Shown: piece after piece, positions 28,029 to 59,481 of the stretch
Position numbering within the stretch: position 1 is the first letter of the stretch
How the letters are laid out: each line of letters starts with the position of its first letter
Assembly (NCBI GenBank): GCA_964584495.1
Contig: CAZPAH010000002.1
Span: 17,775-81,774 of the forward strand
DNA from: an uncultured bacterium
GTDB lineage: Bacteria; Krumholzibacteriota; Krumholzibacteriia; Krumholzibacteriales; Krumholzibacteriaceae
Direction: 5' to 3'
Length of the DNA: 64,000 nucleotides
Notes under the pieces: generated by a model
Database searches by the model: none
Told to the model about the DNA's origin: nothing
What the model saw: only the letters and a program-made list of their open reading frames with translations
Position numbers and translations under genes: made by a program

Positions 28029-29280
28029 TCCATCCCCCGGTCTCCGTCCCTTTACCGGGCCGGCCCTTCCCCCGGTACAATTCGAGATAAAGTTTCCCCA
28101 CCCTATCCGCCACGCTCCTCATGCCGTAGCCGGCCTCTATATCGGCGGCCGCTTTTCGACCTAGGCGCGCGGAAAGATCCGGCTCGGCCAGAACCCTCTC
28201 CATCGCCTCTGAGAGGGCCCCCGCATCGCCCGGCGGAACGAGCATGCCGTTTCCGCCACTCTCTATAGTCTCGGGGATCCCCCCAACCGCCGTCGCGACG
28301 ACCGCTTTGCCGGCGGCCATCGCTTCCAGCATCGAGACGGGAAGCCCTTCGCGGATGGATGATAATACAAACAGATCGGCCGCTTCAAGAAGGTCGGGGA
28401 TATCACGCCTCGATCCCGGCAGGACGAAACTCCCCTCCAATCCGAGTTCCGCAGCCTTCGCCAGTATCTCATCCCGGCGGGGACCGTCCCCGGCGATAAC
28501 GCATCTCGCTTCGGGAACCTTCTTCTTCAAGATCGAGAAGCTCTCCGCCAGGAGGGTGTAATTCTTCTCCTCGACAAGCCTCCCCGCAGAGAAGATCAGC
28601 CTGTCTTCTTCTCCCCATCCGAACTCACTCATCACGGCGGCTTTTCCCTTTCCGCCTCCCGCGAAAGATGCGGGATCGACGGCGTTGGGGATATAGATCA
28701 ATTTCCCGGCGGGTGTCTTCTCCCTGTCCCTCCTGATTTCGAGGATATCCCTGCTTACGCATATCCGCATATCGGTAATCCGGTTGAGCAGCCTCTCCAT
28801 GAGAAGGTAGGCCCTGCCCTTCCACAACCCCTTGCCGTGTTCCGTCGTCACGAGCACCGGTACCCGGGCCGCCCGCGCCGCCAATCTCCCCACCACGTCG
28901 GCGAGCACCAGGTGACAGTGCACTACATCGAATCGGCCTTTCCTCAAGAAACGCACAAGCCTGTAAAACGCCGCCGGGAAAAATCTCATTCTGAAATCGA
29001 GGAAAAGTACCGTTTCGACAACGCCTGCGGCCTCCGCCTCCATCTCCCTGTCACCCCGCTTGAAAAGACAGAGGGACACCGACAGCCTGTCCCTGTCCAG
29101 ATGCTTCAACAATTCCAGGACCTGAACTTCCGCCCCCCCGATATGAAAACGCGGAAGCAGGACGCAGACCTTCAGCTTTCTTCCGGATTCTATCAATCTC
29201 ACCCTCCACGCACGGTTAAAGCGCCCCCCGTAGGGGGCTGCCGCATCAGGCGAGTAATGATACCCCCGCTCACGGTTCAA
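28018..29280 (-). CDS. glycosyltransferase family 1 (GT4)
   Basis: GT-B fold. C-terminal motif EGLPVSMLEAMAAGKAVVATAVGGIPETIESGGNGMLV typical of GT4. Start codon choice is uncertain. Confidence 0.75.
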   Translation of the reverse strand: MNRERGYHYSPDAAAPYGGRFNRAWRVRLIESGRKLKVCVLLPRFHIGGAEVQVLELLKHLDRDRLSVSLCLFKRGDREMEAEAAGVVETVLFLDFRMRFFPAAFYRLVRFLRKGRFDVVHCHLVLADVVGRLAARAARVPVLVTTEHGKGLWKGRAYLLMERLLNRITDMRICVSRDILEIRRDREKTPAGKLIYIPNAVDPASFAGGGKGKAAVMSEFGWGEEDRLIFSAGRLVEEKNYTLLAESFSILKKKVPEARCVIAGDGPRRDEILAKAAELGLEGSFVLPGSRRDIPDLLEAADLFVLSSIREGLPVSMLEAMAAGKAVVATAVGGIPETIESGGNGMLVPPGDAGALSEAMERVLAEPDLSARLGRKAAADIEAGYGMRSVADRVGKLYLELYRGKGRPGKGTETGGWNEE

Positions 29281-30445: not shown

Positions 30446-30461
30446 TGGCACCAGGTTTGCA
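30446..30461 (+). promoter_or_regulatory. sigma-54 (RpoN) -24/-12 promoter consensus TGGCAC-N5-TTGCA
   Basis: Exact match TGGCACcaggtTTGCA with the GG-N10-GC spacing, about 85 nt upstream of the SPFH operon ATG at 30547. Extended context gATTGGCACcaGGTTTGCAcg. No other promoter-like element lies between it and the gene. Confidence 0.5.
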
Positions 30462-34521: not shown

Positions 34522-36066
34522 TTGACGGAACGAACCGGCCTCGAGGAGCCCCTAAGGGAAGAGATCGCCGCGGAGCGCGAAAGCGCCACCGGTCCCATCC
34601 CCGTCCGATGCGAACCGCCGGAAGGGGCTGAGGACGGCTCACGCGTAATCAGGCGTGTCGCCAGGAACACCCTTTCGCTTACCGGAGCCAATCTCGCCAG
34701 CAGCGGCCTGACGTTCCTCGCCACAGCCTACCTGGCGCGAATCCTCACCGCCGAGGGGTTCGGGATACTCGGATTCGCCCAGGCGGCGATGACCTATTTC
34801 ACCCTCCTGATCAACATGGGGTTCGCCCATTACGGGGTGAGGGAGATCGCCCGCAGGCCGGGCGATGTCGACCGTTACGTCAACAACATCGTCACGATCA
34901 GGACCATTCTCGCCGCGGTGAGCTACGCCCTGCTCTTTCTCTTCGCCTACTCGATCTCGAAACCGTTCACAGTCAAAGCGGCGATCCTCATACTCGGCCT
35001 GAAGCTTTTCAGCCTCACCTTCAACCTCAGATGGGTCTTCCAGGGCAAGGAGAGGATGGGATGGATAGCGGTCAGCAGATTCGTCCCCCAGCTCTTTTAC
35101 GCGGCGGCCGTCTTCCTGCTGGTGGAACACCGCGAGCAGGTCCTAAGGGTTCCCGCACTGCAGGTGGCCTCGACCGCAGCGGGAACCGCCATCCTATTGG
35201 CCCTCTATCTTAGAAGCGGACGGAGGTTGAAATTCAGCATCGACATGCCGTTCTGGAGGGAAATATTCAGGCAATCCATTCCGATGGCGGCCAGCTACGT
35301 TCTCAACCAGGTCTACGTGAACTTCGACATGATCTTCCTGGGTTTCACGCATGGAGAGAAGACGGTGGGATTCTATCACGCCGCGAACAGGATCGTTCTG
35401 ACGATCAACATGTTCGGCACATATTACTTCTTCAGCCTTTTCCCGAACCTCTCGAGAATCTTCTTCGATTCGAGGGAGAAGCTCCAGGCGCTCGTATCGA
35501 ACAGCATTAAATATGTGACGATCCTTCTTTTCCCGGTTGCCGTGGGCGGAACCGTGCTCGCCGGACCGATCATACGGACGGCCTTCGGGAGCGGGTATGC
35601 GGCCAGCGTGCTGCCCCTCCAGCTTCTCATTTGGAACGTCGTCATTATAAATATACGGCAGCACTACAGCAACACGCTGATAGCCTGCAACCTTCAAAAA
35701 CGGTACATGTACTGCGCTGCCCTGGGGGCCGCGACGAACATAGTTCTGAACATGATCTTCATCCCGCGCTTCGGTATGCCCGCGGCCGCCTGCACGACGA
35801 TATTCTCCGAGCTCGTCGTCCTCGCCTCGATCCGCAGGGAAACGGGAAAGATTATAAAAACCCGTATCTGGAGGGTAATCGCCAGGCCCCTGGCGGCCTC
35901 ACTGGCGATGGGCGGTATCCTCCTGCAGACGGGAGGATGGAACATCTTCGGAAGAGTAGCGCTCGGCGCATCGGTCTACTTCCCCCTCCTGTTCCTGGTG
36001 GGAGGCCTGAGCGGAAAGGATATTCGAAGGTTGAGCAGGATCGGCCGCGAACGGAACCGGCGGTAG
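34522..36066 (+). CDS. polysaccharide biosynthesis protein / Wzx-like flippase (MOP superfamily)
   Basis: Polytopic (about 12-14 TM) protein after a roughly 50-aa cytoplasmic N-extension. Hydrophobicity pattern and length match oligosaccharide flippases of Wzx/RfbX type. Confidence 0.6.
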   Translation: MTERTGLEEPLREEIAAERESATGPIPVRCEPPEGAEDGSRVIRRVARNTLSLTGANLASSGLTFLATAYLARILTAEGFGILGFAQAAMTYFTLLINMGFAHYGVREIARRPGDVDRYVNNIVTIRTILAAVSYALLFLFAYSISKPFTVKAAILILGLKLFSLTFNLRWVFQGKERMGWIAVSRFVPQLFYAAAVFLLVEHREQVLRVPALQVASTAAGTAILLALYLRSGRRLKFSIDMPFWREIFRQSIPMAASYVLNQVYVNFDMIFLGFTHGEKTVGFYHAANRIVLTINMFGTYYFFSLFPNLSRIFFDSREKLQALVSNSIKYVTILLFPVAVGGTVLAGPIIRTAFGSGYAASVLPLQLLIWNVVIINIRQHYSNTLIACNLQKRYMYCAALGAATNIVLNMIFIPRFGMPAAACTTIFSELVVLASIRRETGKIIKTRIWRVIARPLAASLAMGGILLQTGGWNIFGRVALGASVYFPLLFLVGGLSGKDIRRLSRIGRERNRR

Positions 36067-36122
36067 TATGACCAAGCGCGGGCCCCTCGCCACCGCGGCC
36101 GCTTCGGAGGAGATGTAGAAGG

Positions 36123-37835
36123 TTGAAAACGGGAAAGGATATCGTCTCAAAATACCGCCTCTCGGCGAATGGAGATCCCGCGGCGGACGATCCCCGCCTC
36201 CGGGGACACCTCTGCAGCCGCCCGTCATACAGGGGGCCCGGCGGCCTCTGGCATCATTCGTATTTCGATGCGCTGGACGGGGGCCGCCCGGTCTACCGCT
36301 GGAACACTGGGGCCATACTGTCGGCGATCTCGTTCCACTACGCCGTCGGAGACATGACGCTCCTCGAGGAGATCCGCCGCGATCCATGGCTTTCCCGGAT
36401 CGACGAGGGCCAGGAACCCTACCTTCTCGATATCCCGCCTCACGGCCGCCGTATCGAAAAAACAGAGACGATCGCCGGGAACCTCCTGGAGAAGCTGCGC
36501 GATGAGGCGGCCGGCGCGTGCCGCGGACGCGACGATATCTATATCCTTCTGTCGGGGGGGCTCGACAGCAGGATCGTTGCCTCAACGGTCGCCCGGTTGT
36601 ACGATGAGGGCAGGATAAAAAACAGGCCGGCGGCCGTGACATGGGGTCTCGAGAATTCCCGCGACTATCAGTACGGCCGGGCCGTCGCCCGGACACTCGG
36701 GTTGGAGTGGATACACATAGATATTGGCCCCGGGACGTTGATCGAGAACATCGAGCTCTCGGCGCTCAACGGAAACCTCCTCCCCCCATCCGACCTTCAC
36801 TGCCTGTCCTGGTTCAGGCGTCTCTCTCCCGCCTCCCTCGTCCTGGCCGGCAGCTATGGCGACTCGATCGGCCGCGGCGAATACAGCGGGCAGCATCTTC
36901 TGGAGCTGAGGTATCACAATCCGTCTAACCTGTTCGGCCTGGTCCGTGCTGAGCTGTGCGCTCCGGCGGCCCGGCGGGTGGAGAAGGAGCTGACGGCGCT
37001 TCGAGGCAGAGGCGCAGGTAGACCCGTCTACGCCGTGTGCGAGCTGGAGCAGCAGGCGCATTACATGAGGGGGATGATCCATCAAGCTATCAGCATCGTA
37101 TCCTCATGGTGCGACGTCTATCAGCTTTTCACAGATCCCTCCGTCTACTCCTACATCTGGTCGATCCACCCATCGCTCAGGGGAAACGCTATCTACGCCT
37201 CACTTCTTGAGCTTTTGGATCGACGCCTCGCCCGTATCCCCTGGGCCAGAACCAACCGGGCCATGAGTGGGAAAACCGTCGGGAGGCTCGGAGGTCTACA
37301 AAAAGAGTTTCACAACTACTCCGATTGGATAAGCGGGGAGCTTTACAAGCGGATATCGGAGTATGTCGATCCCGCCTGGTTCGCCTCCACCGGAATCTTC
37401 AACGGGGACAAGGTCGAGCGGCTGGGGGCACGCCTCTCGCCCGGCCGTGCGGGAGGAGAAGGCGGATCTTTCAAACCGTACAGCGTCTACCTCTGGCTCG
37501 CCGCCTTCAGGAGATTCGCCGAGCTGTGCGGGGAGCGGGGCAAGACGCTCGAGCTTTCTGAGGAAAGGGACAAAGCCTGCCCGAGCGCCCTGCTCGATCA
37601 TCCTCCCGACGACAGGTCCTTCCTGAGAAAGGTTATCGGCAGGTCCAGGAAGGCCAGGGAGCTCAGGCGCAAGTTTCGAAGGGTACGTCTTAAAAAACGG
37701 GCGCTGAAGGAGTTCCCTCCCGAACCGGACGACGGGCGGCTCCACGGGGAAACGTGGAACGGAGCGACCGCCCCGGGAAAAGACCTAAGTCCCGGAATAG
37801 AAAAGACTAAAGTCCCTGTTTCAGGATCCGAATAG
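36123..37835 (+). CDS. asparagine-synthetase-domain protein lacking the N-terminal glutaminase domain
   Basis: PP-loop motif LSGGLDSRIVAS of the AsnB synthetase (ATP pyrophosphatase) domain, but the N-terminus has no Cys-2 Ntn glutaminase signature (MCG). Followed by a full-length AsnB paralog. Confidence 0.55.
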   Translation: MKTGKDIVSKYRLSANGDPAADDPRLRGHLCSRPSYRGPGGLWHHSYFDALDGGRPVYRWNTGAILSAISFHYAVGDMTLLEEIRRDPWLSRIDEGQEPYLLDIPPHGRRIEKTETIAGNLLEKLRDEAAGACRGRDDIYILLSGGLDSRIVASTVARLYDEGRIKNRPAAVTWGLENSRDYQYGRAVARTLGLEWIHIDIGPGTLIENIELSALNGNLLPPSDLHCLSWFRRLSPASLVLAGSYGDSIGRGEYSGQHLLELRYHNPSNLFGLVRAELCAPAARRVEKELTALRGRGAGRPVYAVCELEQQAHYMRGMIHQAISIVSSWCDVYQLFTDPSVYSYIWSIHPSLRGNAIYASLLELLDRRLARIPWARTNRAMSGKTVGRLGGLQKEFHNYSDWISGELYKRISEYVDPAWFASTGIFNGDKVERLGARLSPGRAGGEGGSFKPYSVYLWLAAFRRFAELCGERGKTLELSEERDKACPSALLDHPPDDRSFLRKVIGRSRKARELRRKFRRVRLKKRALKEFPPEPDDGRLHGETWNGATAPGKDLSPGIEKTKVPVSGSE

Positions 37836-37877
37836 GTAAGTGAGCGAAGATCGCCATTATTCAAGAAAGGACCGCTA

Positions 37878-39860
37878 ATGTGCGGCATAGCCGGTATATT
37901 TCATCTCGACCCCAGAGCCGAAGCGGACCGGTCCCTCCTCGCCGGGATGACCGATATCCTCGCCCACAGGGGCCCGGACGACAGCGGGCTCTACGTTGAC
38001 GGCCGGATCGGTCTCGGCCACAGGAGGCTCTCCATAATCGACCTGCGGACCGGTCAGCAGCCGATGTCGTCGAACGACCGCACCGTCTGGCTCGTTCTCA
38101 ACGGGGAGATATACAATTTCAAGGAACTGAGGCGCGAGCTGAGATCGTTCGGCCACGCGTTCCGGACCAGATCGGATACTGAGGTTGTAATTCAGGCCTA
38201 TAACCAGTGGGGAACCGGTTTCCTTGGGAAGATGAACGGCATGTTCGCCCTCGCCCTCTGGGATTGCAGCCGGTCCCGCCTCGTGCTGGCGAGGGACCGC
38301 CTTGGAATCAAGCCTCTCTACACGACCGTCGCGGGAAACGCCCTCCTATTCGCCTCCGAGATCAAGTCGCTGCTCCGATACCCCGGCGTGCGCCGCGAAC
38401 CCGATCCCGAATCGATCTCCGCCTATCTCGGATTCAGGTGCCCGCTCGGCGACAAGACTCTTTTCAAGAAGATAGAAAAGCTGAGCCCGGGACACATGCT
38501 GGTCGCCGAGAACGGCTACCTATCCAAAATATCGTACTGGGAGCTTCCCCTCGATGGAAAGCGGAAGGACCGAGGCGAGGAATACTACGTCAAAAAGATC
38601 CGGTCACTTCTGAAGCGCTCTGTGAGGCGGAGGATGATCAGCGACGTTCCGATCGGCGCATACCTCAGCGGGGGCCTCGACAGCTCGATCATAGTGTCCC
38701 TAATGGCCGGCATGAGCCGGTCCCCCGTGAAGACCTACACGATAGGATTCGAGGAGGAGGGATACAACGAGCGCCGGTACGCCCGGTTGGCGGCCGACAT
38801 GTACGGCACCGACCACCGGGAGATCCTGCTGGGCGACGACGATTACACGAGCCTGATCCCCGAGCTGATCCGCTTCAAGGACGCCCCCCTTTCGGTGGCG
38901 AACGAGATACCGCTCTACGTGATGTCGAGGGAGCTGAAGAAGGATATCACCGTCGTCCTGTCCGGAGAGGGGGCCGACGAGCTGTTCGCCGGCTACGGCC
39001 GTATATTCAGATCTCCATTCGACTACGAGAGGGCCCTCTTCCTTGAAACCGACACCGAGATCCTTCCGCAATACAGGGAAACCCTCCTGTCACGGGTCGA
39101 GGATATATACGGCACCCGCTCCTTCCTGAACGAGCTGGTCCACTTCATGAAAAAGTACAGATGGATGAGTCCCGCCGACAAGGGGATATTCCTCTCACAG
39201 CCCCTTCTCGATTCGATCAACGGGGACGAGAGGGCGCTGGGCTACTTCGCCTCCCAGATGAAGGACGCCATGCATCTGAACCACTACGAAAAGCTTCTCT
39301 ACATCTTCCAGAAAACTCATCTCGAGAACCTCCTAATGCGGGTCGACATGACCACGATGGCTGCATCGGTCGAGGCACGAGTGCCCTTCGTCGACCACGA
39401 ATTGGTCGAGTTCGTTTTCACGATGCCATTCCATTACAAGATCAGATGGAAGAGCGATCTCCACAAGCTGATGGCCGCTTTTCTGGCGAGCGACGAGATC
39501 AGCGAAAAATTCGATACACCTAAATACATACTGAGAAGATCATTCTCCTCCGACCTGCCAGAAGAGATACTGACCCGCCGGAAGATGGGATTCCCCGTCC
39601 CGTTGGACCGGTGGATGGGAGGCGGGTATGCCCTGTTCATGAGGGAGATTCTTCTCGACGGGCGGACGCGCCGAAGGGGGATGTTCAATATCGGTTCGGT
39701 CGAGAAACAGCTGGGCCGCGCAGAGGAACATGACCACGGAACGGCCCTCAAGCTCTGGATGCTTATGAACCTGGAGCTTTGGTTCAGGGAGTATATAGAT
39801 AAACCGGAAGGGGGAAAGGTTTCTGCCGGCCGCGGCCCCGAGCTCGCCGCGGCCGTCTGA
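37878..39860 (+). CDS. asparagine synthase (glutamine-hydrolysing) family amidotransferase
   Basis: Starts MCGIAGIF (catalytic Cys2 of the class-II glutamine amidotransferase), RLSIIDL, PP-loop YLSGGLDSSIIVS. 660 aa, typical of AsnB-like enzymes that sit in polysaccharide loci. Confidence 0.8.
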   Translation: MCGIAGIFHLDPRAEADRSLLAGMTDILAHRGPDDSGLYVDGRIGLGHRRLSIIDLRTGQQPMSSNDRTVWLVLNGEIYNFKELRRELRSFGHAFRTRSDTEVVIQAYNQWGTGFLGKMNGMFALALWDCSRSRLVLARDRLGIKPLYTTVAGNALLFASEIKSLLRYPGVRREPDPESISAYLGFRCPLGDKTLFKKIEKLSPGHMLVAENGYLSKISYWELPLDGKRKDRGEEYYVKKIRSLLKRSVRRRMISDVPIGAYLSGGLDSSIIVSLMAGMSRSPVKTYTIGFEEEGYNERRYARLAADMYGTDHREILLGDDDYTSLIPELIRFKDAPLSVANEIPLYVMSRELKKDITVVLSGEGADELFAGYGRIFRSPFDYERALFLETDTEILPQYRETLLSRVEDIYGTRSFLNELVHFMKKYRWMSPADKGIFLSQPLLDSINGDERALGYFASQMKDAMHLNHYEKLLYIFQKTHLENLLMRVDMTTMAASVEARVPFVDHELVEFVFTMPFHYKIRWKSDLHKLMAAFLASDEISEKFDTPKYILRRSFSSDLPEEILTRRKMGFPVPLDRWMGGGYALFMREILLDGRTRRRGMFNIGSVEKQLGRAEEHDHGTALKLWMLMNLELWFREYIDKPEGGKVSAGRGPELAAAV

Positions 39861-39876
39861 GGGGAGCCTGAATAAG

Positions 39877-40620
39877 ATGAGAGTAATAATACTGGCGGCG
39901 GGAAAGGGAGAACGGCTCTATCCGTTGACGAAAAACAGCCCCAAGAGCCTTCTTGAGCTTGGCGGGGGCAAAACCGTTCTGGAAAGCCAGCTCGAGCATA
40001 TCGCCACGGTGGGGATCGGCGATGTGACAATCGTCACCGGATACAAGACGGAACAGATCGAAGCCAAGGTTCTCGGTTTCGACGGTCTCGAAATCACGAT
40101 CTGCTATAATCCTTTCTTCTCGACGAGCAACAACCTGATATCGGCCTGGCTGGCGATCCGGGAAACGGGGGAAAACTTCGTGCTAGTCAACGGAGACGAC
40201 GTATTCAAGGTCCACGTGCTCTCGGGGCTGCTCGAATCGAAAAACGATATCACCATGGTGATAGACCGCAAGGAGGAGTACGACTCCGACGACATGAAGG
40301 TAATCACACGCGGCGGAAGAATCCTGGAAGTAAGCAAGGAGATCGATCCGGCCAGGGCCGACGGAGAATCGATCGGGATGATCCTATTCAGGGGAAAGGG
40401 CCGAACGATCATCAGGGAGACGCTGGAGAGGATGGTCCGCAGGGATGAAGCCAAGAATATCTTCTACCTGGCCGCCCTCCAGGAGATCATGAACATGGGC
40501 TTCCCGGTGAACTACCATGAATGCTCGCGGGAAGACTGGGCGGAGATCGATTTCCATTCGGATCTTTCATTCATCCGCTCACGGATAGACAGATACGCGG
40601 CCGATATAGTGAACGTATGA
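39877..40620 (+). CDS. sugar-/alcohol-phosphate cytidylyltransferase-like nucleotidyltransferase (IPCT/LicC-like)
   Basis: MRVIILAAGKGERLYPLTKNSPKSLLELGG is the G-x-G-x-R-L nucleotide-binding loop of small nucleotidyltransferases. 247 aa. Confidence 0.6.
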   Translation: MRVIILAAGKGERLYPLTKNSPKSLLELGGGKTVLESQLEHIATVGIGDVTIVTGYKTEQIEAKVLGFDGLEITICYNPFFSTSNNLISAWLAIRETGENFVLVNGDDVFKVHVLSGLLESKNDITMVIDRKEEYDSDDMKVITRGGRILEVSKEIDPARADGESIGMILFRGKGRTIIRETLERMVRRDEAKNIFYLAALQEIMNMGFPVNYHECSREDWAEIDFHSDLSFIRSRIDRYAADIVNV

Positions 40621-40633
40621 TGAAAGGACGGCG

Positions 40634-41398
40634 ATGGAATCGATAGCCGAGCTCCGCGCGCTGTGCCGCAGGGAGAACGACGAGGACAACCGCAAGACGA
40701 TGTTCCTCGCATCGAGGGTCTCGATCTATTTCACCCGGCTCTTCCTTATGATGAATATGTCGGCGAATCAGGTCACCTATCTCTTCATCGTTCTCGGCAT
40801 CGCCGGGTCATTTTCGTTTCTCGGCCCAGGCCCATACTGGGCCCTCGCGGGCTACATACTGATGAGACTACACGTGATCGCCGATGTCTGCGACGGCGAG
40901 GTGGCCAGGTACAGACGCACCTTCAGCTCCACCGGCGCCTACCTCGATTTTCTGACCCATTACCTGGTCTACGGGATCGTGCTGTTCGCCATTCCGCTGA
41001 GGTGCTACATGGATTTCGGCCGTTTCTGGAGCGTGACGGCGGGGTTCGTCCTGGTGCTCTCGAACACGATGAACAGGGCTTCGGTCGATTGCTGGTTCAG
41101 GGCCAACTTCGGCAAAAAGGGAAGAGACGAAATCGAAGAGGGTGGACCGGGCCGCAAGAGGAGTTCCCTCTCCCGCTGGAGAAAGACGGCCGTACTCCTT
41201 GCTTCCCACTCGACGAGCCTCCAGACCTTTCTCAACTTCTATATCGCCGCGGTCATCCTGGAAAGGCTGTTGGCGCTTGATCTCCGTCTGTACCTGATCC
41301 CGGCCTACGCGGCGGCCCTCTCCCTGTTCACCTCGGCCAGGATAGCGCTTACGATAGCGCGGGGGAGGATCCCGCGCAGGGCGACGTACTATTCATGA
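40634..41398 (+). CDS. CDP-alcohol phosphatidyltransferase family protein (DIPPS-like)
   Basis: DVCDGEVARYRRTFSSTGAYLDFL fits D-x2-DG-x2-AR-x8-G-x3-D. The N-terminal helix NMSANQVTYLFIVLGIAGSFSFL resembles di-myo-inositol-phosphate-phosphate synthase-type enzymes. Follows the nucleotidyltransferase by 13 nt. Confidence 0.6.
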   Translation: MESIAELRALCRRENDEDNRKTMFLASRVSIYFTRLFLMMNMSANQVTYLFIVLGIAGSFSFLGPGPYWALAGYILMRLHVIADVCDGEVARYRRTFSSTGAYLDFLTHYLVYGIVLFAIPLRCYMDFGRFWSVTAGFVLVLSNTMNRASVDCWFRANFGKKGRDEIEEGGPGRKRSSLSRWRKTAVLLASHSTSLQTFLNFYIAAVILERLLALDLRLYLIPAYAAALSLFTSARIALTIARGRIPRRATYYS

Positions 41399-41410
41399 GA
41401 CGGAGCGCCT

Positions 41411-42631
41411 TTGAACGGCGCCGGATCGAAAAAGGAGAACCGTTCCCCGATGTCAACCGGCACGGACAGTAACCATGGAACTATCGAGGATATCCTCGAT
41501 CGGATAGAGGAAGTCGCCCGTACCGGCGAGGACCGGCTGGCGGATACCAGGATATGCAGGATAGCCTCCTTTCCGACGAGGGAGTTTCCGGGGAGCGGCC
41601 TTCCCGGCTACTACCTCTGCAAAAATATCAAGGGCCCCACCCTCTTTCTCACGAGAAAGACGGGGGAGCCGGTGGACGTCCCCCCCCACGTCGATCTGAG
41701 GATGATCGATCACTCGAGCCCGCTTCTCGGAGAGAAGATCGATCCATTGAAGGCGGCATCGAAACTTCCCGGCCTTATGAAGTTCTTTCTCTCTACGGTA
41801 AGGCCGATGACCCGCTTCAAACCCGAGATCGTTCATATTCACTCTCCCCTGTACATCCTTCACGCCGTCTGGGCGAAATTCATACTCGGCTCGCGCGTGT
41901 GCATGACCTTCCACGGCTCCGACCTTCTGAGGATAAAGAGATCGAGGATCCTTCAGAAGCTTCTTCCGTGCCTCGTCGATCTCTTCTTCTATGTATCCCC
42001 ATCGATGGCCGCCGACCTGGCGCAATTCATCCCCGTCTCGAGAATGATTCATACTCCCAACGGCGTCGATCTCGATAATTTCAACGACCGGAACCTAAAG
42101 AGGGAGAAGCGGATCGTGGCAGTCGGAAACCTGAGGTGGCAGAAAGGATACGAGTATCTGCTCGACGCTTTCGCCTCGCTCGACGCCCCCGGTTATTCCC
42201 TCGCCGTTCTGGGGGACGGCCCCCTGAGAGACGCCATGGAAAAAAGGATCGAAAAGCTTGGAATGGAAGACCGCATATTCCTCCCGGGAAGAAAGAGCCA
42301 CGAGGAGATCGCCTATCTCCTGAACAGGAGCGAGATCTTCGTAATGTCATCGGTTTCCGAGGGGTTTCCGAAGGCGCTCGTGGAAGCTATCGCATCGGGC
42401 CTTCCCGTTGTGACGACCGATGTCGGCTGCTGCCGTGAGCTGACCGGCGAGGCGGGCATCTGCGTCGCACCCGGCGACGCTGACGCGCTGGCGGCGGCGC
42501 TCGCCAGGCTTATCGACGACGGCGATCTCAGAAAGGGATTTTCCAGGAAAGCATCGGAGTCGGCCGTCAAGTACGGATGGGAAAAACCGTGCGAAACCGT
42601 AAGAGAAGCGTACGAAAAAATCGTATCCTGA
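41411..42631 (+). CDS. glycosyltransferase family 1 (GT4)
   Basis: C-terminal EGFPKALVEAIASGLPVVTTDVGCCRELTGEAGICV motif of GT4 enzymes. Confidence 0.7.
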   Translation: MNGAGSKKENRSPMSTGTDSNHGTIEDILDRIEEVARTGEDRLADTRICRIASFPTREFPGSGLPGYYLCKNIKGPTLFLTRKTGEPVDVPPHVDLRMIDHSSPLLGEKIDPLKAASKLPGLMKFFLSTVRPMTRFKPEIVHIHSPLYILHAVWAKFILGSRVCMTFHGSDLLRIKRSRILQKLLPCLVDLFFYVSPSMAADLAQFIPVSRMIHTPNGVDLDNFNDRNLKREKRIVAVGNLRWQKGYEYLLDAFASLDAPGYSLAVLGDGPLRDAMEKRIEKLGMEDRIFLPGRKSHEEIAYLLNRSEIFVMSSVSEGFPKALVEAIASGLPVVTTDVGCCRELTGEAGICVAPGDADALAAALARLIDDGDLRKGFSRKASESAVKYGWEKPCETVREAYEKIVS

Positions 42632-42811
42632 AATTCGTTCAGGCCTTCAGGAGGAAAGGGGGAAACCAAAATCGATTTTTTTGCGGAACACCTCTTGTAA
42701 AAATTTTTTAGATATGCCATGTTCTGTCATGTCAGAGGATCGTTAAAGGCACTGTAACGGCTGCCGGTTCTGCCGGCCGCCTTCACTTGAGAAAGCAAGG
42801 AGGAGGATTAA

Positions 42812-43417
42812 GTGAAAAAGGGTTATCTTGTAGCCATCGTTCTTTCGGCGCTGCTGATCCTGCCGGTATCGGGCAGCCGCGCGGAGTCGTTCCTAGACGA
42901 AGTGACTTTCGGAGCCGACGCGGGGCTCTCTATGCCGATGGGTAACTCGGGCGATCTGTACAGCATGGGTTTCGTGGTCGGGGTCAACGGATTCTATCCC
43001 TACAGGGAGAACATCCTGATAGGCGGGCGCATCGCCTACAACAGGTGGGGAATCGACAGCGGCGGCTGGGTCGGCAGCAATGTCGACGGCTCCTCCTCGG
43101 TAATGGAGTTCGTGCCGCAGGTCCGGTACCTCTTCCCCACGGAAGAAGGAAAAACGATGAGCTTCTTCGGGCAGGGCGGACTGGGATTCTACAGGTACGC
43201 TTTCAATGTCGACGTCGAAAACGATCTGCCCCTCGTGGGAGTTCAAAAATACAGCTACGATGATTCGGCCGTGAATCTCGGGCTCTGTTTCGGCGGGGGA
43301 GCTCTATTTGAGCAAGGCTCCGGAAGGGTCTGGGAAGTGAGACCGATGATTCATATGGTTTTTACGGAGGGGGAATCCACGACCTTCCTTTCCCTGACGG
43401 TCGGAACCACGTTCTGA
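42812..43417 (+). CDS. small outer-membrane beta-barrel protein
   Basis: Signal peptide MKKGYLVAIVLSALLILPVSGSRA. Alternating beta-strand pattern. C-terminal ...LSLTVGTTF with terminal Phe. 201 aa (8-stranded barrel size). Confidence 0.55.
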   Translation: MKKGYLVAIVLSALLILPVSGSRAESFLDEVTFGADAGLSMPMGNSGDLYSMGFVVGVNGFYPYRENILIGGRIAYNRWGIDSGGWVGSNVDGSSSVMEFVPQVRYLFPTEEGKTMSFFGQGGLGFYRYAFNVDVENDLPLVGVQKYSYDDSAVNLGLCFGGGALFEQGSGRVWEVRPMIHMVFTEGESTTFLSLTVGTTF

Positions 43418-43442
43418 TCGATTCCAGGGTGCGGAGAACCGT

Positions 43443-44234
43443 TTGATGCGAAGAATATTGCCGTTGCTCGCCGCGATCCTCATTGCGGCGGGCGGCGTGT
43501 GGGAAGTTCGGGCGGCCATAGAGCCGCCCGATTCAATCTCTGTCGAAGCAGGGGGAGAAAACGTCCGGGTGAGGGCCGTCGATTCAATTTTCTCCATCTC
43601 CGCGCGGCGGAAAGCCGGTAGGGAAGAGATCGGCTGGTATGTGTCCCTTTTCCGCCTTCTTAACGGAAGGGCGGCCAACCCCGTCTTCGACGCGATCATG
43701 CCCCCTATCACCGATTTCAGAAGATCCAGGATCTTCGTGCTCGTCGCCTGGTCCGCCCTCGTGATATTCGGGGGAAGAAAGGGACGCTGGGCCGCTTTCA
43801 TGTTGATACCGCTTATCGTCGCTTCGGATCAGATATCCTCATCCCTGCTGAAACCTCTCGTAGCGAGGATGCGCCCCTGCGAGGTTCTGGGAAATGTGCG
43901 CCTATGGCACGGCTCGGAGGGTTGGATCGTCACTCCGGCCGATATATCCGGAAGCTACAAGTCGTCGTTCTCCTTTCCATCTAGCCACGCAACCAACATC
44001 ACGGCGGCGATGCTCTTTCTGGGATTGGTCTACAGGAGACTGCTGGTGCCGCTTCTCGTCTTGGCCCTCGCCGTATCGTACTCTAGAATCTACGTGGGGG
44101 TTCACTGGCCCCTTGACGTGGCGGCCGGGATGGCTATAGGCGGATCGCTTGCCGTGATCGCTTGGCTGATTTTCAAAAAACTTGCAGGTACGGCGGCGAA
44201 CGGCCGTACGGCGAAGAGCGGCGGCGGAATCTGA
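43443..44234 (+). CDS. PAP2-superfamily membrane phosphatase
   Basis: Acid-phosphatase motifs KPLVARMRP (KxxxxxxRP), PSSHA (PSGH) and SRIYVGVHWPLD (SRxxxxxHxxxD). Confidence 0.7.
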   Translation: MMRRILPLLAAILIAAGGVWEVRAAIEPPDSISVEAGGENVRVRAVDSIFSISARRKAGREEIGWYVSLFRLLNGRAANPVFDAIMPPITDFRRSRIFVLVAWSALVIFGGRKGRWAAFMLIPLIVASDQISSSLLKPLVARMRPCEVLGNVRLWHGSEGWIVTPADISGSYKSSFSFPSSHATNITAAMLFLGLVYRRLLVPLLVLALAVSYSRIYVGVHWPLDVAAGMAIGGSLAVIAWLIFKKLAGTAANGRTAKSGGGI

Positions 44235-44253
44235 GACATCCCGTTCCGGCGGC

Positions 44254-45165
44254 CTACACGACCAGAACGGGGCATATTCCTTTCTGGATGACCTTCGCCG
44301 AGGTGCTGCCGAAGAGGAAATCTCCTATCCCATGGGAACCGGCCGTCCCCATGATGATCAGATCAACCTTCTCCTTCTTCGCGAGCTCCCTTATGCTGTC
44401 GCCCGCCCTTCCCTCGCTGACCCTGTAGCTCACGTCGAACCCCTCCAGTTTTCCTCCCAGATCCTCTTTCATCTTGGCGGTCACACGCTCCTCCAGATCG
44501 GGATCGAGCTGCAGGATCGAAGTCACTCCGGAAGTGTAGTACACCGGCGGTATTTCCACGTCGATCGCATGGTAAACTATGATTTCCGCATGGTTCACCA
44601 AGGCCATCGATTTCACGTATTCGGCCGGTTTGTAAGATTTTTTCGAAAAATCCACGGGGAAGAGTATCTTCCGGATCTGCACATCCCCCGTGTCCGGATC
44701 TATAAACTCATGCTCATGCTGCTTCACGACGAGAACCGGGCATGTCGAGTACCGGATGATGTTCTCGGCGACGCTTCCGAGAAGAACATGCGACAGGCCG
44801 CTCCGGCCGTGCGTCGATATCACTATCATCCCTATCTCACCCTCATCTTCCACGAATTCGAGTATAGCCGCGTGGGGGGAGACTCCCTGAATAACCTCTT
44901 TTCTGACCGGCACACCGGCCCCTTCGGCCCTTTTCTCTCCGTCCTTGAACATCCCTATCGCCACGGCCCTCGCTTCCTCGCAATACTTCTTCAGGGAGGG
45001 AAACTGGTGCTCAGGGTCGTTGGGATCGTGCTCGAACAGGGTTATGGCATGGAGCATAATCAACTCGGCTTTGTGGATCTTAGCCATCTTGATCGCGTAC
45101 GGCAGCGCATGATTGGCGACTTCGGAAAAATCGGTCGTAAAGAGCACTTTTTTGATCTCGGGCAT
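44254..45165 (-). CDS. universal stress protein, tandem UspA domains
   Basis: Two UspA domains (KKVLFTTDFSEVANHALPYAI...; RKILFPVDFSKKSYKPAEYV...) with ATP-binding G-x2-G-x9-G-S/T-type loops (GTAGSHGIGDFLFGSTSAKV). Start is moved from the track's TTG to ATG (MPEIKK) with a GGGGAGA RBS. Confidence 0.75.
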   Translation of the reverse strand: MPEIKKVLFTTDFSEVANHALPYAIKMAKIHKAELIMLHAITLFEHDPNDPEHQFPSLKKYCEEARAVAIGMFKDGEKRAEGAGVPVRKEVIQGVSPHAAILEFVEDEGEIGMIVISTHGRSGLSHVLLGSVAENIIRYSTCPVLVVKQHEHEFIDPDTGDVQIRKILFPVDFSKKSYKPAEYVKSMALVNHAEIIVYHAIDVEIPPVYYTSGVTSILQLDPDLEERVTAKMKEDLGGKLEGFDVSYRVSEGRAGDSIRELAKKEKVDLIIMGTAGSHGIGDFLFGSTSAKVIQKGICPVLVV

Positions 45166-45184
45166 ATCGTCTCTCCCCGGTTGG

Positions 45185-45204
45185 TTGAACGCTAGAGCGT
45201 TCAA
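45185..45204. promoter_or_regulatory. 20-bp perfect palindrome TTGAACGCT-AG-AGCGTTCAA upstream of the usp gene
   Basis: 9-bp perfect inverted arms with a 2-bp spacer, 20-40 nt upstream of the usp ATG. Its size and symmetry fit a dimeric regulator site. Confidence 0.35.
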
Positions 45205-55623: not shown

Positions 55624-55959
55624 CGTTCACCTAGGACCGGGAAACAATAATAATCGATCGTCCCGTTTCACTCAAAGAGAATACATCGAAGAGGCCTCTT
55701 TTATTCAACCGGCGGGGTCGGCCTGCGCGCAAGCCGTGATTTCCGCACGGGTTGCGAAGAGATGGGCATGTTCCGACACCCAAATGGGAAGCACTGACCT
55801 CCACGCGAGACAAGGCAGAATGAAAGAACGCCTCTCTCCTGAACGTGGCATAATGAGAATCGGGGAGCAACGATCGAGCCTTATCGGGACTATCGGGCCG
55901 ATGCGCCATAATATTATTACATAATGCTTTACGGCGGGGTATCCCTCTCGTATCCCGAT

Positions 55960-55975
55960 TGGCACACAGGTTGCT
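55960..55975 (+). promoter_or_regulatory. sigma-54 (RpoN) -24/-12 promoter consensus TGGCAC-N5-TTGCT
   Basis: TGGCACacaggTTGCT with GG-N10-GC spacing, about 60 nt upstream of the ATG at 56035 (RBS AAGGAGG). Shares the extended motif GATTGGCAC..AGGTTGC with the promoter at 30446. Confidence 0.5.
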
Positions 55976-56034
55976 GACCGACCATATAGAAAGAGGGGAC
56001 AGCAGGACTCATCTGGAGAGAAGGAGGTCACAGC

Positions 56035-56871
56035 ATGAGGAAGGTCTTCGTAGTCCTATTAGCCATGTCTCTGAGCGGCTTGTTCGTATCATGCTCTGAA
56101 GACAGCACCACGGTCACCCCGACGCCTTCGTTCGGGATCTCGACGTCAGCGCTTCCCGCGGGTTACACCTGTACTCCGTACAATTTCGACCTGCAGGCTT
56201 CTGGCGGAACGGCGCCCTACACCTGGGCACTCGAGGCGGGTTCGACTCTTCCTGCGGGCATTTCACTGTCCTCGGAAGGAAAGCTCCTCGGTGTTCTGGA
56301 AAGCGCCGGCTCATTCAATTTCAGCGTAGTCTGCACCGATGCAGCGGGTACGCCTCGCACGGATACCGAAGAGTTCACTCTCGATATCGAGGTTCCGGCC
56401 AATCCGGCGCTCGCCATCTACTATGACGGCGACGCCACGGTTTGCAGCTCGGAAACGGCGGCCTTTAGCGCGCTCGATTGCTATGTTTTCATCATGCTCG
56501 ATGAGACAGCCCTCGATTGCGCCTACGGAACCGAGTTCATGCTCACGATAACCGACGTGGACAACGATCCCTTGGCTCTCGGTACGCAGTACACGCACTC
56601 CTATGTCGATTACCCTGATTACGTGACGCTCACGATGGGCGATCCCTTCAGCGGTATCGCCATTTCGTTCTCGAGAGGTTACTATTACTCGGACGGCCCG
56701 ATCCAGGTCGCCAGCTTCGGCCTGCTGCTGCTCGAGTCTCTTGACAACCTGACGTTCAACATCGAGCCGAGCCCCTCCTCCGAGTGGACCCGTCCCGTTG
56801 TTGCCACCTGCGATGGCGAACATTCTACGCAGGAAGTCACCGGCCGCCGCGCCGCTCTGAACTTCCAGTAA
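56035..56871 (+). CDS. lipoprotein with putative Ig-like (cadherin/dystroglycan-type) domain
   Basis: Signal peptide with lipobox LFVSCS. PYTWALEAGSLPAGISLSSEGKLLGV is characteristic of the bacterial putative-Ig-domain repeat. A second beta-rich domain follows. Confidence 0.55.
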   Translation: MRKVFVVLLAMSLSGLFVSCSEDSTTVTPTPSFGISTSALPAGYTCTPYNFDLQASGGTAPYTWALEAGSTLPAGISLSSEGKLLGVLESAGSFNFSVVCTDAAGTPRTDTEEFTLDIEVPANPALAIYYDGDATVCSSETAAFSALDCYVFIMLDETALDCAYGTEFMLTITDVDNDPLALGTQYTHSYVDYPDYVTLTMGDPFSGIAISFSRGYYYSDGPIQVASFGLLLLESLDNLTFNIEPSPSSEWTRPVVATCDGEHSTQEVTGRRAALNFQ

Positions 56872-56898
56872 GAGCTGGCCATCAAGAGCGATTAAATG

Positions 56899-56943
56899 TC
56901 CCCGGGAGTTCCGGCATCAGCCGGACTCCCGGGTTCTTTTTTA
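56899..56943 (+). terminator. rho-independent terminator after the Ig-like lipoprotein gene
   Basis: About 14-bp stem CCCGGGAGTTCCGGC-atca-GCCGGACTCCCGGG (one bulge) followed by UUCUUUUUUACC, about 30 nt after the stop codon. Confidence 0.6.
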
Positions 56944-56985
56944 CCTATCGGCTCTTTTCTCCGTCCCCGAACATCCCGCCGCCTC

Positions 56986-59481
56986 CTAGTCCTTCTTGAA
57001 CAGATCCTTGAGCTTGTCGGCCGCTCCCTTCTTCAGTCCGTCGATCAGTTTCTCGCCCGCCCTTGCCTTCGCCCTGCTCTGGTCGAGCCTTATCTTCGGC
57101 GACTTCGCCGTACCGCCGATATCGAAATCGAATACCAGGTTCCCCCCGTCGTCGCGGAAGAGATCCAGCAGGTCACGGTAGCCGTCAAGGTCTTTCATCC
57201 CCTTCTGGGCCGCGGGGGAAATCTTCAGGTTCGCCTTGTAAGCGAGTGTTCCGTCCAGACCGAAAGATCCAGAGATCGACCAATCGCCCGTCGACGACTT
57301 CAGCAGCCAGTCTTCGGTGCTGAATCTTCCCCCGCTTATCCTGTAGCTTCCCGTCCACTGATTGAATTTCACCTTCTTGAGACTCTCCAGCTTCATCCCC
57401 GAGGATTCGGCGAGGGGGGAGATGAATTCGGAAAGGTCGACCACTCCCCCGGAGGAAGACGCGTTGCCGGAGATATCCATCGACATAAGCGGGTCTATAC
57501 CGGGTCCCGTATCGACATCGCCGACTACCTTGAAGGAGAAGAGGCCGCTCACCGACGATCCCATCTTGTGAAGCGGGCGCAGCGCCTGCGAGGCCTCGAT
57601 ATTCTCGAACACTATATTGATCCGCGTGTTTATCCTCGCCACGTTCCTCAGGTTCGAATCGATCTTACCCCTACCCTTTCCGCCCGCAAAATCAATACCC
57701 ACCGGATAAGCGTTCAACATGCCGTCCCTGACGGCACCCTTGGCATTCAGCGAGGTGAAAACTGCCTTCCGGGTGATCACCGAATCGACCGCGACGGAGA
57801 AACCCGTCCGTTTAAGGAATGGGACGATCCCCGCGAGGGCCGGGGAGCTTTCCTTGGAAGCCGCTCCGGTTCCCTTCGCGCCTGACGGCGGCGCCTTGCC
57901 CTTTTCCCCTTCAGCTCCCTTTAATTCCTGGAACGGCCGCGCATCGAATGATCTCGCGCTAAGGTCGATATTTATATCGGGAACATTCCGTATCGAATCG
58001 ATGACCTTGGCGAGATCGACGCTCCGATCGCCGCCCCCGGCCGTGGCGGACAGTTCGGCGAGGCAGGGGAAAAGCCCTTTCATCGAGCCGGTCACCCGCC
58101 ACCGGTCGTGCCCCGCCAGGATCCCCGCCTCGATCTTGCTCACATCGCCCCCCGAGATCACGGCCGTCCCGTCGACCGAAAAGATCTTAAGAGGCCCGCC
58201 GGCGGTCTGGATACTGATACCGGTCGCCGTGAGTTTTCCCCCAAGCTCGAGATTTTTCCAGGCACCGGCGATAACGGCGGGATCCCTCTTGCCTTCGCCG
58301 GAGGGAAACAGGCCGGACAGAACGGGCAATGCCGCCTTCCCCTTGATCTCACCCTTGATTTTACCGGCAACCGTCGTCCCCTCGATTTTGAGGGACCTAG
58401 TCAGCGCCGCCACGTCCATATCGGCGCCGGCGTTGAAACCGAGACGTCCCGGTTTACGGTCGCCGCCGATCGGAAGATCGAACGAGACCCGGGCGGATAC
58501 TCCCTCGGAGGCGAGATCGATCCTCTCGCTCCTTATCCCGCCGGTCGAAAACTCGACCGCGCCTCCCGCCTTGACGGGAATCCGCATTTTCCCGGCCGTG
58601 GAGGAGACCTCGTTCAGCGCTAGGCTACCGTTCACCTTTATCCGCGAGATATTTTTCAGGGACCCTCCCGCCTCCACCCTAAAATCGATCGTCCCGCCGG
58701 TCGGATCGAACGGCACCGCATCGGCCAGTTTCTTGCCTTTTAGCTGCGGGAGAAAACGTTCCGGCTGGAGGGAAATCAACTTTCGATAAAGCTTCACGAC
58801 GTCGTTCCCGCTGCTTTCAACCGTTGCCGAGAAGACCCCCTCTCCACTCAAGCCTTCCAGCTTTCCCGCGACGGCCGCCTCGGCCAGTCCATCGACTTCC
58901 ACGGTGCAATCGGTGAGAGATAGATCCTCGAAACGGGGTCCGGCATCGAGGATGCCACTCAACGAAACCCTGCCCAACGCCAGTTTCTCCCCGGTAGAGG
59001 CCTTTTCCAGCTCGACCTCGCCCGCATCGAGCTTCACAACGGCGTGATAACCGTCGCCCGACGGTTCCATCGACATCCAAGCCTTTAAATCCCTGACCTG
59101 TGCGTTGATCCCCCGGCTAGGATCGATCACAACGACGACCCCGCCCTCGACCTCGACATTCTTGATGTCGGGGTGTTTCCTGATAAGGCTCCATAGCGAT
59201 ACGTTGATAACCAGCTTCCGGGAGGCGAAATCGATCCCGACCCCCGCGGGAAGCTTCTTCTCGAACGAAAGATCCCTTGCATCCACTCCGAATCCGAACG
59301 GAAATCGGACCCCGATATCGCCGATCTCGATTTTCGCGTCGACCGCCTTCTCGATCCTGGGGACTATCATAACCATGAGCCTCTCTCGCGTGAGGAACAA
59401 ACGGAGGACCACGCTCACGGCCAGAATAATGCCGGCGGCGACGCACAACGCTACAATCAGCTTCCTGCCCCTGCTTTTCAT
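56986..59481 (-). CDS. AsmA-family protein (large periplasm-spanning, TamB/AsmA-like)
   Basis: 831 aa. Single N-terminal TM anchor (LIVALCVAAGIILAVSVVL), then a long beta-rich Gly/Ser-rich body. C-terminal region with the AsmA-like pattern (WTGSYRISGGRFSTEDWLLKSSTGDWSISGSFGLDGTLAYKANLKIS). Confidence 0.65.
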   Translation of the reverse strand: MKSRGRKLIVALCVAAGIILAVSVVLRLFLTRERLMVMIVPRIEKAVDAKIEIGDIGVRFPFGFGVDARDLSFEKKLPAGVGIDFASRKLVINVSLWSLIRKHPDIKNVEVEGGVVVVIDPSRGINAQVRDLKAWMSMEPSGDGYHAVVKLDAGEVELEKASTGEKLALGRVSLSGILDAGPRFEDLSLTDCTVEVDGLAEAAVAGKLEGLSGEGVFSATVESSGNDVVKLYRKLISLQPERFLPQLKGKKLADAVPFDPTGGTIDFRVEAGGSLKNISRIKVNGSLALNEVSSTAGKMRIPVKAGGAVEFSTGGIRSERIDLASEGVSARVSFDLPIGGDRKPGRLGFNAGADMDVAALTRSLKIEGTTVAGKIKGEIKGKAALPVLSGLFPSGEGKRDPAVIAGAWKNLELGGKLTATGISIQTAGGPLKIFSVDGTAVISGGDVSKIEAGILAGHDRWRVTGSMKGLFPCLAELSATAGGGDRSVDLAKVIDSIRNVPDINIDLSARSFDARPFQELKGAEGEKGKAPPSGAKGTGAASKESSPALAGIVPFLKRTGFSVAVDSVITRKAVFTSLNAKGAVRDGMLNAYPVGIDFAGGKGRGKIDSNLRNVARINTRINIVFENIEASQALRPLHKMGSSVSGLFSFKVVGDVDTGPGIDPLMSMDISGNASSSGGVVDLSEFISPLAESSGMKLESLKKVKFNQWTGSYRISGGRFSTEDWLLKSSTGDWSISGSFGLDGTLAYKANLKISPAAQKGMKDLDGYRDLLDLFRDDGGNLVFDFDIGGTAKSPKIRLDQSRAKARAGEKLIDGLKKGAADKLKDLFKKD

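Follow-up and report, generated by a model that had tools for sequence, protein, structure and literature searches.

Gene and promoter at the locus

The DNA analysed here is a 64,000-nucleotide (nt) stretch from an uncultured bacterium of the Krumholzibacteriota (GenBank assembly GCA_964584495.1, contig CAZPAH010000002.1), hereafter called the window; all positions are those of the window. It carries an open reading frame (ORF) at 56035-56871 (+ strand) for a putative lipoprotein of 278 amino acids (aa) with immunoglobulin-like (Ig-like) domains. The gene is preceded by a string that matches the promoter consensus of sigma-54 (RpoN) and is followed by a hairpin with a T-tract. Krumholzibacteriota and Bacteroidota both belong to the FCB (Fibrobacteres-Chlorobi-Bacteroidetes) superphylum. 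To our knowledge, the Krumholzibacteriota have no cultured representatives, their gene regulation is wholly uncharacterised, and no sigma-54 promoter has been studied in this phylum; a literature search on its RpoN found nothing. An original prediction, made from the letters of the window, had read the segment as a compact sigma-54-dependent transcription unit. In this study, we estimate the probability that the locus is an enhancer-dependent sigma-54 transcription unit for a single gene at about 80%.

The sequence TGGCACacaggTTGCT occupies positions 55960-55975 on the + strand and reads TGGCAC-acagg-TTGCT, with the -24 GG at 55961-55962 and the -12 GC at 55973-55974. As TGGCACACAGGTTGCT, it is an exact -24/-12 consensus, and the spacing from GG to GC is exactly 10 bp in the pattern TGGCAC-N5-TTGCW. 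It sits in the 411-nt intergenic region between lemA and the lipoprotein gene, on the strand of the latter, and the C of TTGC lies 60 nt from the ATG at 56035. A perfect promoter at this distance had been predicted, together with a second perfect site elsewhere in the window (site 1, described below). Both are borne out: the exact consensus was found twice in the window against 0.00 expected from 100 shuffles, and both matches are intergenic and co-oriented with the downstream gene. The usual geometry of sigma-54 promoters would place the transcription start at 55985-55987 (+ strand), about 11-13 nt past the -12 GC.

The conservation of the element was evaluated in related genomes. A scan with one genome per species yielded 38 loci, almost all of which carry the label Krumholzibacteriota or are unclassified metagenome-assembled genomes (MAGs). 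The window and 34 usable orthologous loci that include the gene start (protein identity 42-68%) made up the set of 35 loci. All loci (35/35) have TGGCA[CT]-N5-TTGC[TA] upstream of the orthologous gene, at 54-63 nt from its ATG. A search of both strands of the 38 loci (273,506 bp) found 34 occurrences of the motif, all at the orthologous promoter position and 0 elsewhere. The half-sites are invariant and exactly 5 nt apart, spacer positions 3-5 are variable, and the 12 bases directly upstream of the element hold just 0.1-0.5 bits in the aligned loci; bases adjoining the element are down to about 0.1-0.3 bits. Because these flanking bases are saturated, the element appears to be held by selection, and fixed half-sites at an exact 5-nt spacing with a variable spacer are the signature of a -24/-12 promoter.

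These comparative data bear on the idea that the string is a chance match without function. With one mismatch tolerated, the 64 kb hold 2 matches against 0.71 expected, and at least 2 were obtained in 17 of 100 shuffles; this count alone is not significant and would suit a chance match. The exact consensus, however, has an expectation of 0.00, is kept in 35/35 loci and occurs nowhere else in 273 kb, so that a chance match is already refuted by the comparison and its likelihood is negligible. From its sequence and conservation, 55960-55975 is very probably a sigma-54 promoter.

The promoter module accompanies the lipoprotein gene with either upstream neighbour, a divergent lemA or a co-directional adk (adenylate kinase gene). 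A paralogue of 375 aa (P0048; locus L119, 3001-4128) has an extra N-terminal domain, lies in another genomic context and adjoins a huge FG-GAP repeat protein. This locus was checked and has no sigma-54 promoter, upstream block, conserved leader or similar terminator of the kinds described here. The module thus belongs to the lipoprotein locus and not to the protein domain.

An invariant block and an A/T-rich region upstream of the promoter

A further element, absent from the original prediction, was found upstream of the promoter. The block TGGCATAATGAGAAT (55846-55860, + strand) is 15 bp long, has the consensus TGGCAT[AT]ATGAGAAT and lies at the same position in loci L001-L035. When upstream regions were right-aligned on the promoter, TGGCAT[AT]ATGAGA(AT) was present in 34/34 loci with enough upstream sequence. 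The block occurs once per locus and once in the window. From the block to the T of TGGCAC the distance is 114 nt in 18 loci, 113 nt in 7 and 112 nt in 9, which makes the block a candidate enhancer (upstream activating sequence) about 139-125 nt before the predicted start. The 200 nt upstream hold nothing else as conserved as this 15-bp block; weaker copies resembling direct repeats (cAGAAT, GGCAAC) lie 30-50 nt further upstream of it.

The spacer at 55861-55906 (+ strand) is constant in length and conserved neither in sequence nor in structure, with about 0-0.8 bits per column. RNAalifold gave 0 pairs for the spacer between the block and the A/T-rich region (about 45 nt after the block), and 0 pairs and no consensus fold around the block with the 60 nt before it included. 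A constant spacer length with free sequence and no RNA structure points to an arrangement at the DNA level, in which a protein at about -139 to -125 would touch the polymerase at the promoter. The distance between block and promoter is within the usual enhancer range, as known for the glnAp2, nifH and Pu promoters. Judged on sequence and spacing, the chances are about even that the block acts as the enhancer of the 55960-55975 promoter.

Between the spacer and the promoter lies an A/T-rich region conserved in position (55907-55932, + strand; consensus TAAC..TT..aCAA.A..TTAc), a candidate DNA-bending or IHF (integration host factor)/HU-like site. Its conserved columns are -53 to -50, -46/-45, -39 to -34 and -31 to -28 relative to TGGCAC. 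The A+T fraction is mostly 0.6-0.8 (range 0.38-0.88) in a window of about 57% G+C. In its column consensus, aCAA-N4-TTA, the region is similar to an IHF site (consensus WATCAA-N4-TTR). We regard the region as a candidate bending site and claim no more for it.

Several points weigh against an enhancer-dependent sigma-54 unit. No rpoN or enhancer-binding protein gene was found in the 64-kb window or in the fetched loci by Pfam scans and six-frame motif search; the search covered 44 window ORFs with Pfam, and the window and 38 genome-contig loci in six frames for GAFTGA, Sigma54_activat and RpoN-box motifs. The upstream block is not palindromic and shows no dyad symmetry, and most characterised activator sites are inverted repeats. 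It can be read as an extended -10 (TGgCATAAT), and so possibly is, or overlaps, a sigma-70-type promoter. Only 8/34 loci have the strict IHF core CAA-N4-TTR in register; the window reads ATAA-N4-TTA. Orthologous sequences are also not independent samples; the saturated flanks nevertheless argue that the conservation of the promoter reflects selection.

The extended -10 leads to a reading of the locus as tandem promoters, in which a housekeeping promoter of sigma-70 type at the block would start transcription about 125 nt upstream of the sigma-54 start. Basal transcripts with a long leader would then be accompanied by inducible sigma-54 transcripts, and an activator site there would overlap and repress the upstream promoter. 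TG-G-CAT[AT]AT fits TGnTATAAT at 8/9 positions in every locus, and the sole variable base (A/T) falls at a less conserved -10 position. In the E. coli glnA region, glnAp1 lies upstream of glnAp2, and the block is placed as glnAp1 is relative to glnAp2. However, a promoter alone gives no reason for the fixed 112-114 nt to the sigma-54 element, and a -10 alone leaves unexplained the invariant GAGAAT that follows it and the invariant G and C within it. A sigma-70 scan did not flag the block, and no -35 partner for it is conserved in the alignment columns, where positions -20 to -15 relative to the block read aaaCgC. We consider tandem promoters unlikely; a sigma-70-type promoter at this place would be compatible with an enhancer.

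Alternatively, another regulator may bind the block, for example a repressor, anti-activator or nucleoid-associated protein, with the activator working from solution or at a less conserved site. The asymmetry of the block, unlike known activator sites, fits such a role, as do the weaker direct-repeat-like copies further upstream and a partial likeness of CATAAT-GAGAAT to two NAT[AT]AT hexamers of a Fur-type box. By contrast, an enhancer needs just such a constant phase relative to the promoter and a place at about -139 to -125, and the 200 nt upstream offer no other stretch of comparable conservation. A regulator of this kind at the block is doubtful.

The stretch of conserved blocks from 55846 to the ATG resembles a long cis-regulatory leader, and TGGCAC-N5-TTGCT could be a conserved RNA or protein site within such a leader, transcribed from a promoter further upstream, that matches the consensus by coincidence. 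The failure to see rpoN or an activator gene in the window and fetched loci would agree with this. On the other side, the element matches the sigma-54 core at 11/11 positions, and its spacer of fixed length and variable sequence is a promoter's own signature. No consensus fold or covariation was found anywhere in the region, and Rfam gave no match. The unrelated gene at site 1 has the same element, conserved in its orthologues. We therefore regard a leader element as very improbable and retain the sigma-54 promoter.

Coding explanations of the block were also tried and rejected. A small ORF that uses the ATG in ATGAGAAT would have frames that differ in length and phase, given the spacings of 112, 113 or 114 nt. 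A minus-strand peptide I-L-I-M-P through the block would explain the A/T wobble; locus L011 has a stop two codons later.

Leader and Shine-Dalgarno sequence

The predicted leader contains two nearly invariant motifs at 55993-56009 (+ strand), GAGGGGAC at 55993-56000 and CAGGACT at 56003-56009, which appear as cGAGGGGAc and caGGAyT in 35 aligned leaders. The Shine-Dalgarno sequence AAGGAGG (56021-56027, + strand) ends 7 nt short of the ATG. The 35 loci show practically no variation in AAGGAGGT, apart from AGGAGGT in L008. The order in the 35 loci is cGAGGGGAc, caGGAyT, aAGGAGGT and ATG. The coding sequence opens with ATG-AGG-AAG-GTC, which hardly varies in its nucleotides, and an AGR codon almost always specifies Arg2. 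The segment 55993-56046 contains four conserved purine blocks of the GGA type: GAGGGGAC, CAGGACT, AAGGAGG and, in codons 2-3, ATGAGGAAGG.

The distance from the GAGGGG block to the promoter varies (12-20 nt) and that to the ATG is steadier (42-48 nt), which suggests a role at the RNA level in translation or stability. With a start about 12 nt past the -12 GC, this block would be the very 5' end of the transcript in many orthologues. RNAalifold found no conserved fold of the leader (-2.9 kcal/mol, no convincing covariation). Rfam, searched at a permissive E-value for a structured RNA or riboswitch in the intergenic region, returned noise only (Tombus_IRE, E 1.5; CsrB on the terminator, E 4.7), and this candidate was rejected.

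The GGA blocks look CsrA-like or like a ribosome standby site, or may just enhance ribosome binding. As in leaders regulated by CsrA/RsmA, three conserved GGA-type blocks lie in a 50-nt leader and a fourth in codons 2-3, one block covers the Shine-Dalgarno sequence, CAGGAYT resembles the ACA-GGA-U core, and the AGGA block is about 18 nt from the Shine-Dalgarno sequence. Unlike those leaders, this one has no conserved hairpins that present the GGA motifs. A bolder and rather improbable reading is that the invariant asymmetric 15-mer is the site of an undescribed activator, or reflects an undescribed mode of DNA binding by an activator, and that the GGA-rich leader adds CsrA-like or 5'-3' untranslated-region control of translation. 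With these two layers of control, the first being sigma-54 activation, the phylum-specific surface lipoprotein would stand out as a key surface determinant of Krumholzibacteriota that is tightly switched.

Terminator and boundaries of the unit

An intrinsic terminator lies at 56901-56942 (+ strand). It consists of a hairpin (56901-56933), whose 14-bp stem is interrupted by a single bulged U at 56910 and closed by a 4-nt loop, and of TTCTTTTTT after it up to 56942. The 91 nt at 56870-56960, which include the hairpin, fold at -40.6 kcal/mol (z = -5.1), and 0/200 shuffles were as stable. A simple consensus scan for terminators missed the hairpin because of the bulge. A nested hairpin with a T-run was found 62-93 nt past the stop codon in 26/33 loci by a test of at least 6 T in 8, and in the remaining 7/33 loci (e.g., L021 and L035) the T-run after the hairpin is shorter. 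Most loci have the outer stem CCCCTCGGGA/TCCCGGGGGG in common, around an inner stem that varies. The terminator pattern occurs once per locus, with a minus-strand match as well in 8/38 loci.

Across the phylum (L001-L032), the terminator is unusual in that the sequence of its outer stem is conserved, beyond structure alone. The conserved leader GAGGGG is complementary to the terminator's 5' arm, with UGUCCCC opposite GGGGACA in the window. A pairing between the 5' untranslated region and the terminator (GAGGGG with CCCCUC) was considered and rejected, as it sets a G-run against a C-run and shows, by eye, no consistent covariation across clades.

The next downstream gene is convergent, so the lipoprotein unit would be monocistronic. 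The original prediction had described a compact unit of promoter, ribosome-binding site, Ig-like lipoprotein gene and 14-bp-stem terminator with a U-tract. Each part is recovered: the Shine-Dalgarno sequence 7 nt before the ATG, the gene with its signal peptide, lipobox Cys20 and He_PIG domain above cutoff (described below), and the terminator with the one bulge and z = -5.1. A compact, monocistronic unit made of these elements is supported, indirectly yet strongly, by the sequence comparison. The unit is also larger than predicted, since it takes in the upstream block, the A/T-rich region, the conserved leader and the conserved stem sequence of the terminator.

The lipoprotein and its family

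The ORF product starts with MRKVFVVLLAMSLSGLFVSC, a signal peptide that ends in the lipobox cysteine Cys20 (codon 56092-56094) and is followed by S-E-D-S. MRKVFVVLLAMSLSGLFVS-C20 is an N-terminal basic and hydrophobic signal with a lipobox, as read from the sequence. An Ig-like He_PIG domain (PF05345) covers aa 36-118 with 43.2 bits against a Pfam cutoff of 24, and a second beta-sandwich domain with conserved cysteines covers aa ~121-278. The AlphaFold model is all-beta with two beta-sandwich domains (predicted local distance difference test, pLDDT, 79). A fold search in the PDB gave generic Ig tandems only, with template modelling (TM) scores of 0.16-0.28; as these matches are generic and below 0.3, no specific function follows from them. 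An NCBIfam search gave no family for the protein.

There are 83 full-length homologues with 43-73% identity, and the named ones come from Candidatus Krumholzibacteriota MAGs. In an alignment of 30 homologues, the MRKVF start is almost invariant, C20-S21 is near-invariant with acidic residues next, and the cysteines C46, C137, C149, C162 and C259 of the mature part are invariant.

The mature N-terminus C-S-[DE]-D (56092-56106 in the window, Cys20-Ser-Glu-Asp-Ser) is near-invariant in the family. Lipoprotein export signals of Bacteroidota, SDDDD in B. fragilis and SDDFE in F. johnsoniae, direct surface exposure (PMC5080379). The lipoprotein shares with these surface lipoproteins a lipobox cysteine followed by S and acidic residues, and an Ig-like beta-sandwich body; it differs in that it belongs to another phylum and often has S or T, not acidic residues, at the fourth and fifth positions. 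The likeness of C-S-[DE]-D, together with the common superphylum, makes surface display reasonable, and by this analogy the lipoprotein is probably displayed on the cell surface.

Genomic context

The gene order around the unit, as assigned with Pfam, is conserved: an RluA-type pseudouridine synthase, an M29 peptidase, and then htpX and lemA, which run in the opposite direction. About ten loci have adk inserted between lemA and the lipoprotein gene, on the strand of the latter. In the window, the corresponding place of this + strand gene is about 220 nt of non-coding DNA (55624-55845) between lemA and the upstream block, and no remnant of adk was found anywhere in the window. Downstream, the convergent gene at 56986-59481 (- strand) encodes a membrane-anchored protein of 831 aa, and most of the 38 loci keep this gene in synteny with that of the lipoprotein. 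Its N-terminal part shows sub-threshold similarity to the YhdP/DUF748 (AsmA-like) and GspN models.

Comparison with site 1

The other exact match in the window, site 1, is TGGCACCAGGTTTGCA at 30446-30461, upstream of an SPFH/Band_7_1 gene with zinc ribbons and two more zinc-ribbon ORFs. This gene set is reminiscent of the pspA-ydjGHI envelope-stress genes of B. subtilis. Among metagenome loci (L039-L116), TTGGCA[CT]-N5-TTGC[AT] is present 75-90 nt before the ATG in 20/22 of the closest orthologous loci (at least 73% identity), or in 21/22 if cGGCAT-N5-TTGCA of L048 is included; the element is absent in more distant SPFH/Band_7_1 homologues. Judged by this pattern, site 1 is taken to be a real, lineage-specific sigma-54 promoter. 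Its conservation in its own orthologues indicates that the lineage uses sigma-54 promoters, and both genes are probably sigma-54-dependent.

The original prediction had gone further and proposed that the two sites share an extended motif, GATTGGCAC-N2-AGGTTGC, and hence a common regulon with possible co-regulation. This part did not hold. Site 1 reads GATTGGCAC-CA-GGTTTGC, so that only GATTGGCAC is common to both sites; AGGTT is one base out of register with the -24/-12 elements, and the GAT flank is conserved in neither family. The upstream block is also absent from site 1 and its orthologues, and the comparison of the two sites gave nothing that points to a shared activator.

Proposed mechanism and comparison with known systems

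For an enhancer-dependent sigma-54 unit, the elements described above suggest the following course. RNA polymerase with sigma-54 would bind TGGCAC-N5-TTGCT (55960-55975) as a closed complex, and an ATP-dependent activator about 113 bp upstream would open it. The activator would most likely sit on the block TGGCATAATGAGAAT (55846-55860) and be encoded elsewhere in the genome, and the A/T-rich region at 55907-55932 between them may aid DNA looping. Transcription would start near 55985-55987 and give a leader of about 50 nt that combines a strong Shine-Dalgarno sequence with the conserved, purine-rich motifs of GGA type. The product would be the 278-aa lipoprotein of two beta-sandwich (Ig-like) domains, probably located on the cell surface. 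Transcription would end at the hairpin and T-tract of 56901-56942, ahead of the convergent neighbour.

This arrangement is like that of glnAp2 (E. coli), nifH (Klebsiella) and Pu (Pseudomonas) in its exact -24/-12 element, a conserved element that keeps a constant distance some 110-140 bp upstream, an A/T-rich region between the two and a unit of a single gene. The possible overlap with an upstream sigma-70-type promoter would also recall E. coli glnAp1/glnAp2. In contrast to these promoters, the locus has a single asymmetric 15-mer in place of paired inverted repeats, the IHF consensus is matched loosely (8/34), and no RpoN or activator gene is seen in the 64-kb window or the fetched loci. 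The promoter is of an ordinary type and reveals no new mechanism; the locus adds a well-documented case, from a phylum not studied before, to a kind of system that is already known.

As a clean, phylum-wide regulatory module of candidate enhancer, bend, promoter, leader and terminator, the locus could anchor the prediction of regulons in these genomes, and the 15-bp block offers a concrete DNA bait for the cognate activator. The locus also singles out, as a regulated trait, a conserved lipoprotein family that is probably exposed on the surface and has no known function.

Lipoproteins and other components of the cell exterior are a recognised theme under sigma-54 (Francke et al., 2011; PMC3162934), and with this locus the idea that the cell exterior is under sigma-54 gains a further case. 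The locus agrees with this theme, and with the Rrp2-RpoN system of Borrelia, in that a surface or envelope lipoprotein gene has a sigma-54 promoter and many envelope and polysaccharide genes lie in the window. In Borrelia, however, the route is indirect (from RpoN to RpoS to lipoproteins) and no enhancer site is needed, whereas here the promoter lies on the lipoprotein gene itself.

The envelope and polysaccharide genes of the window lie at 34522-45195, 12-1406, 11489-12559 and 26808-29280. They include a Polysacc_synt flippase, two asparagine-synthase-like genes, GT4 glycosyltransferases and a nucleotidyl transferase, as well as a CDP-alcohol phosphatidyltransferase, a PAP2 gene, a Wzy_C O-antigen ligase-like gene and a polysaccharide deacetylase. 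Elsewhere in the window, in the gene product of 5768-6766 (- strand), an N-terminal rubrerythrin-like domain is joined to a phosphatase domain of SpoIIE/PP2C type, an unusual combination.

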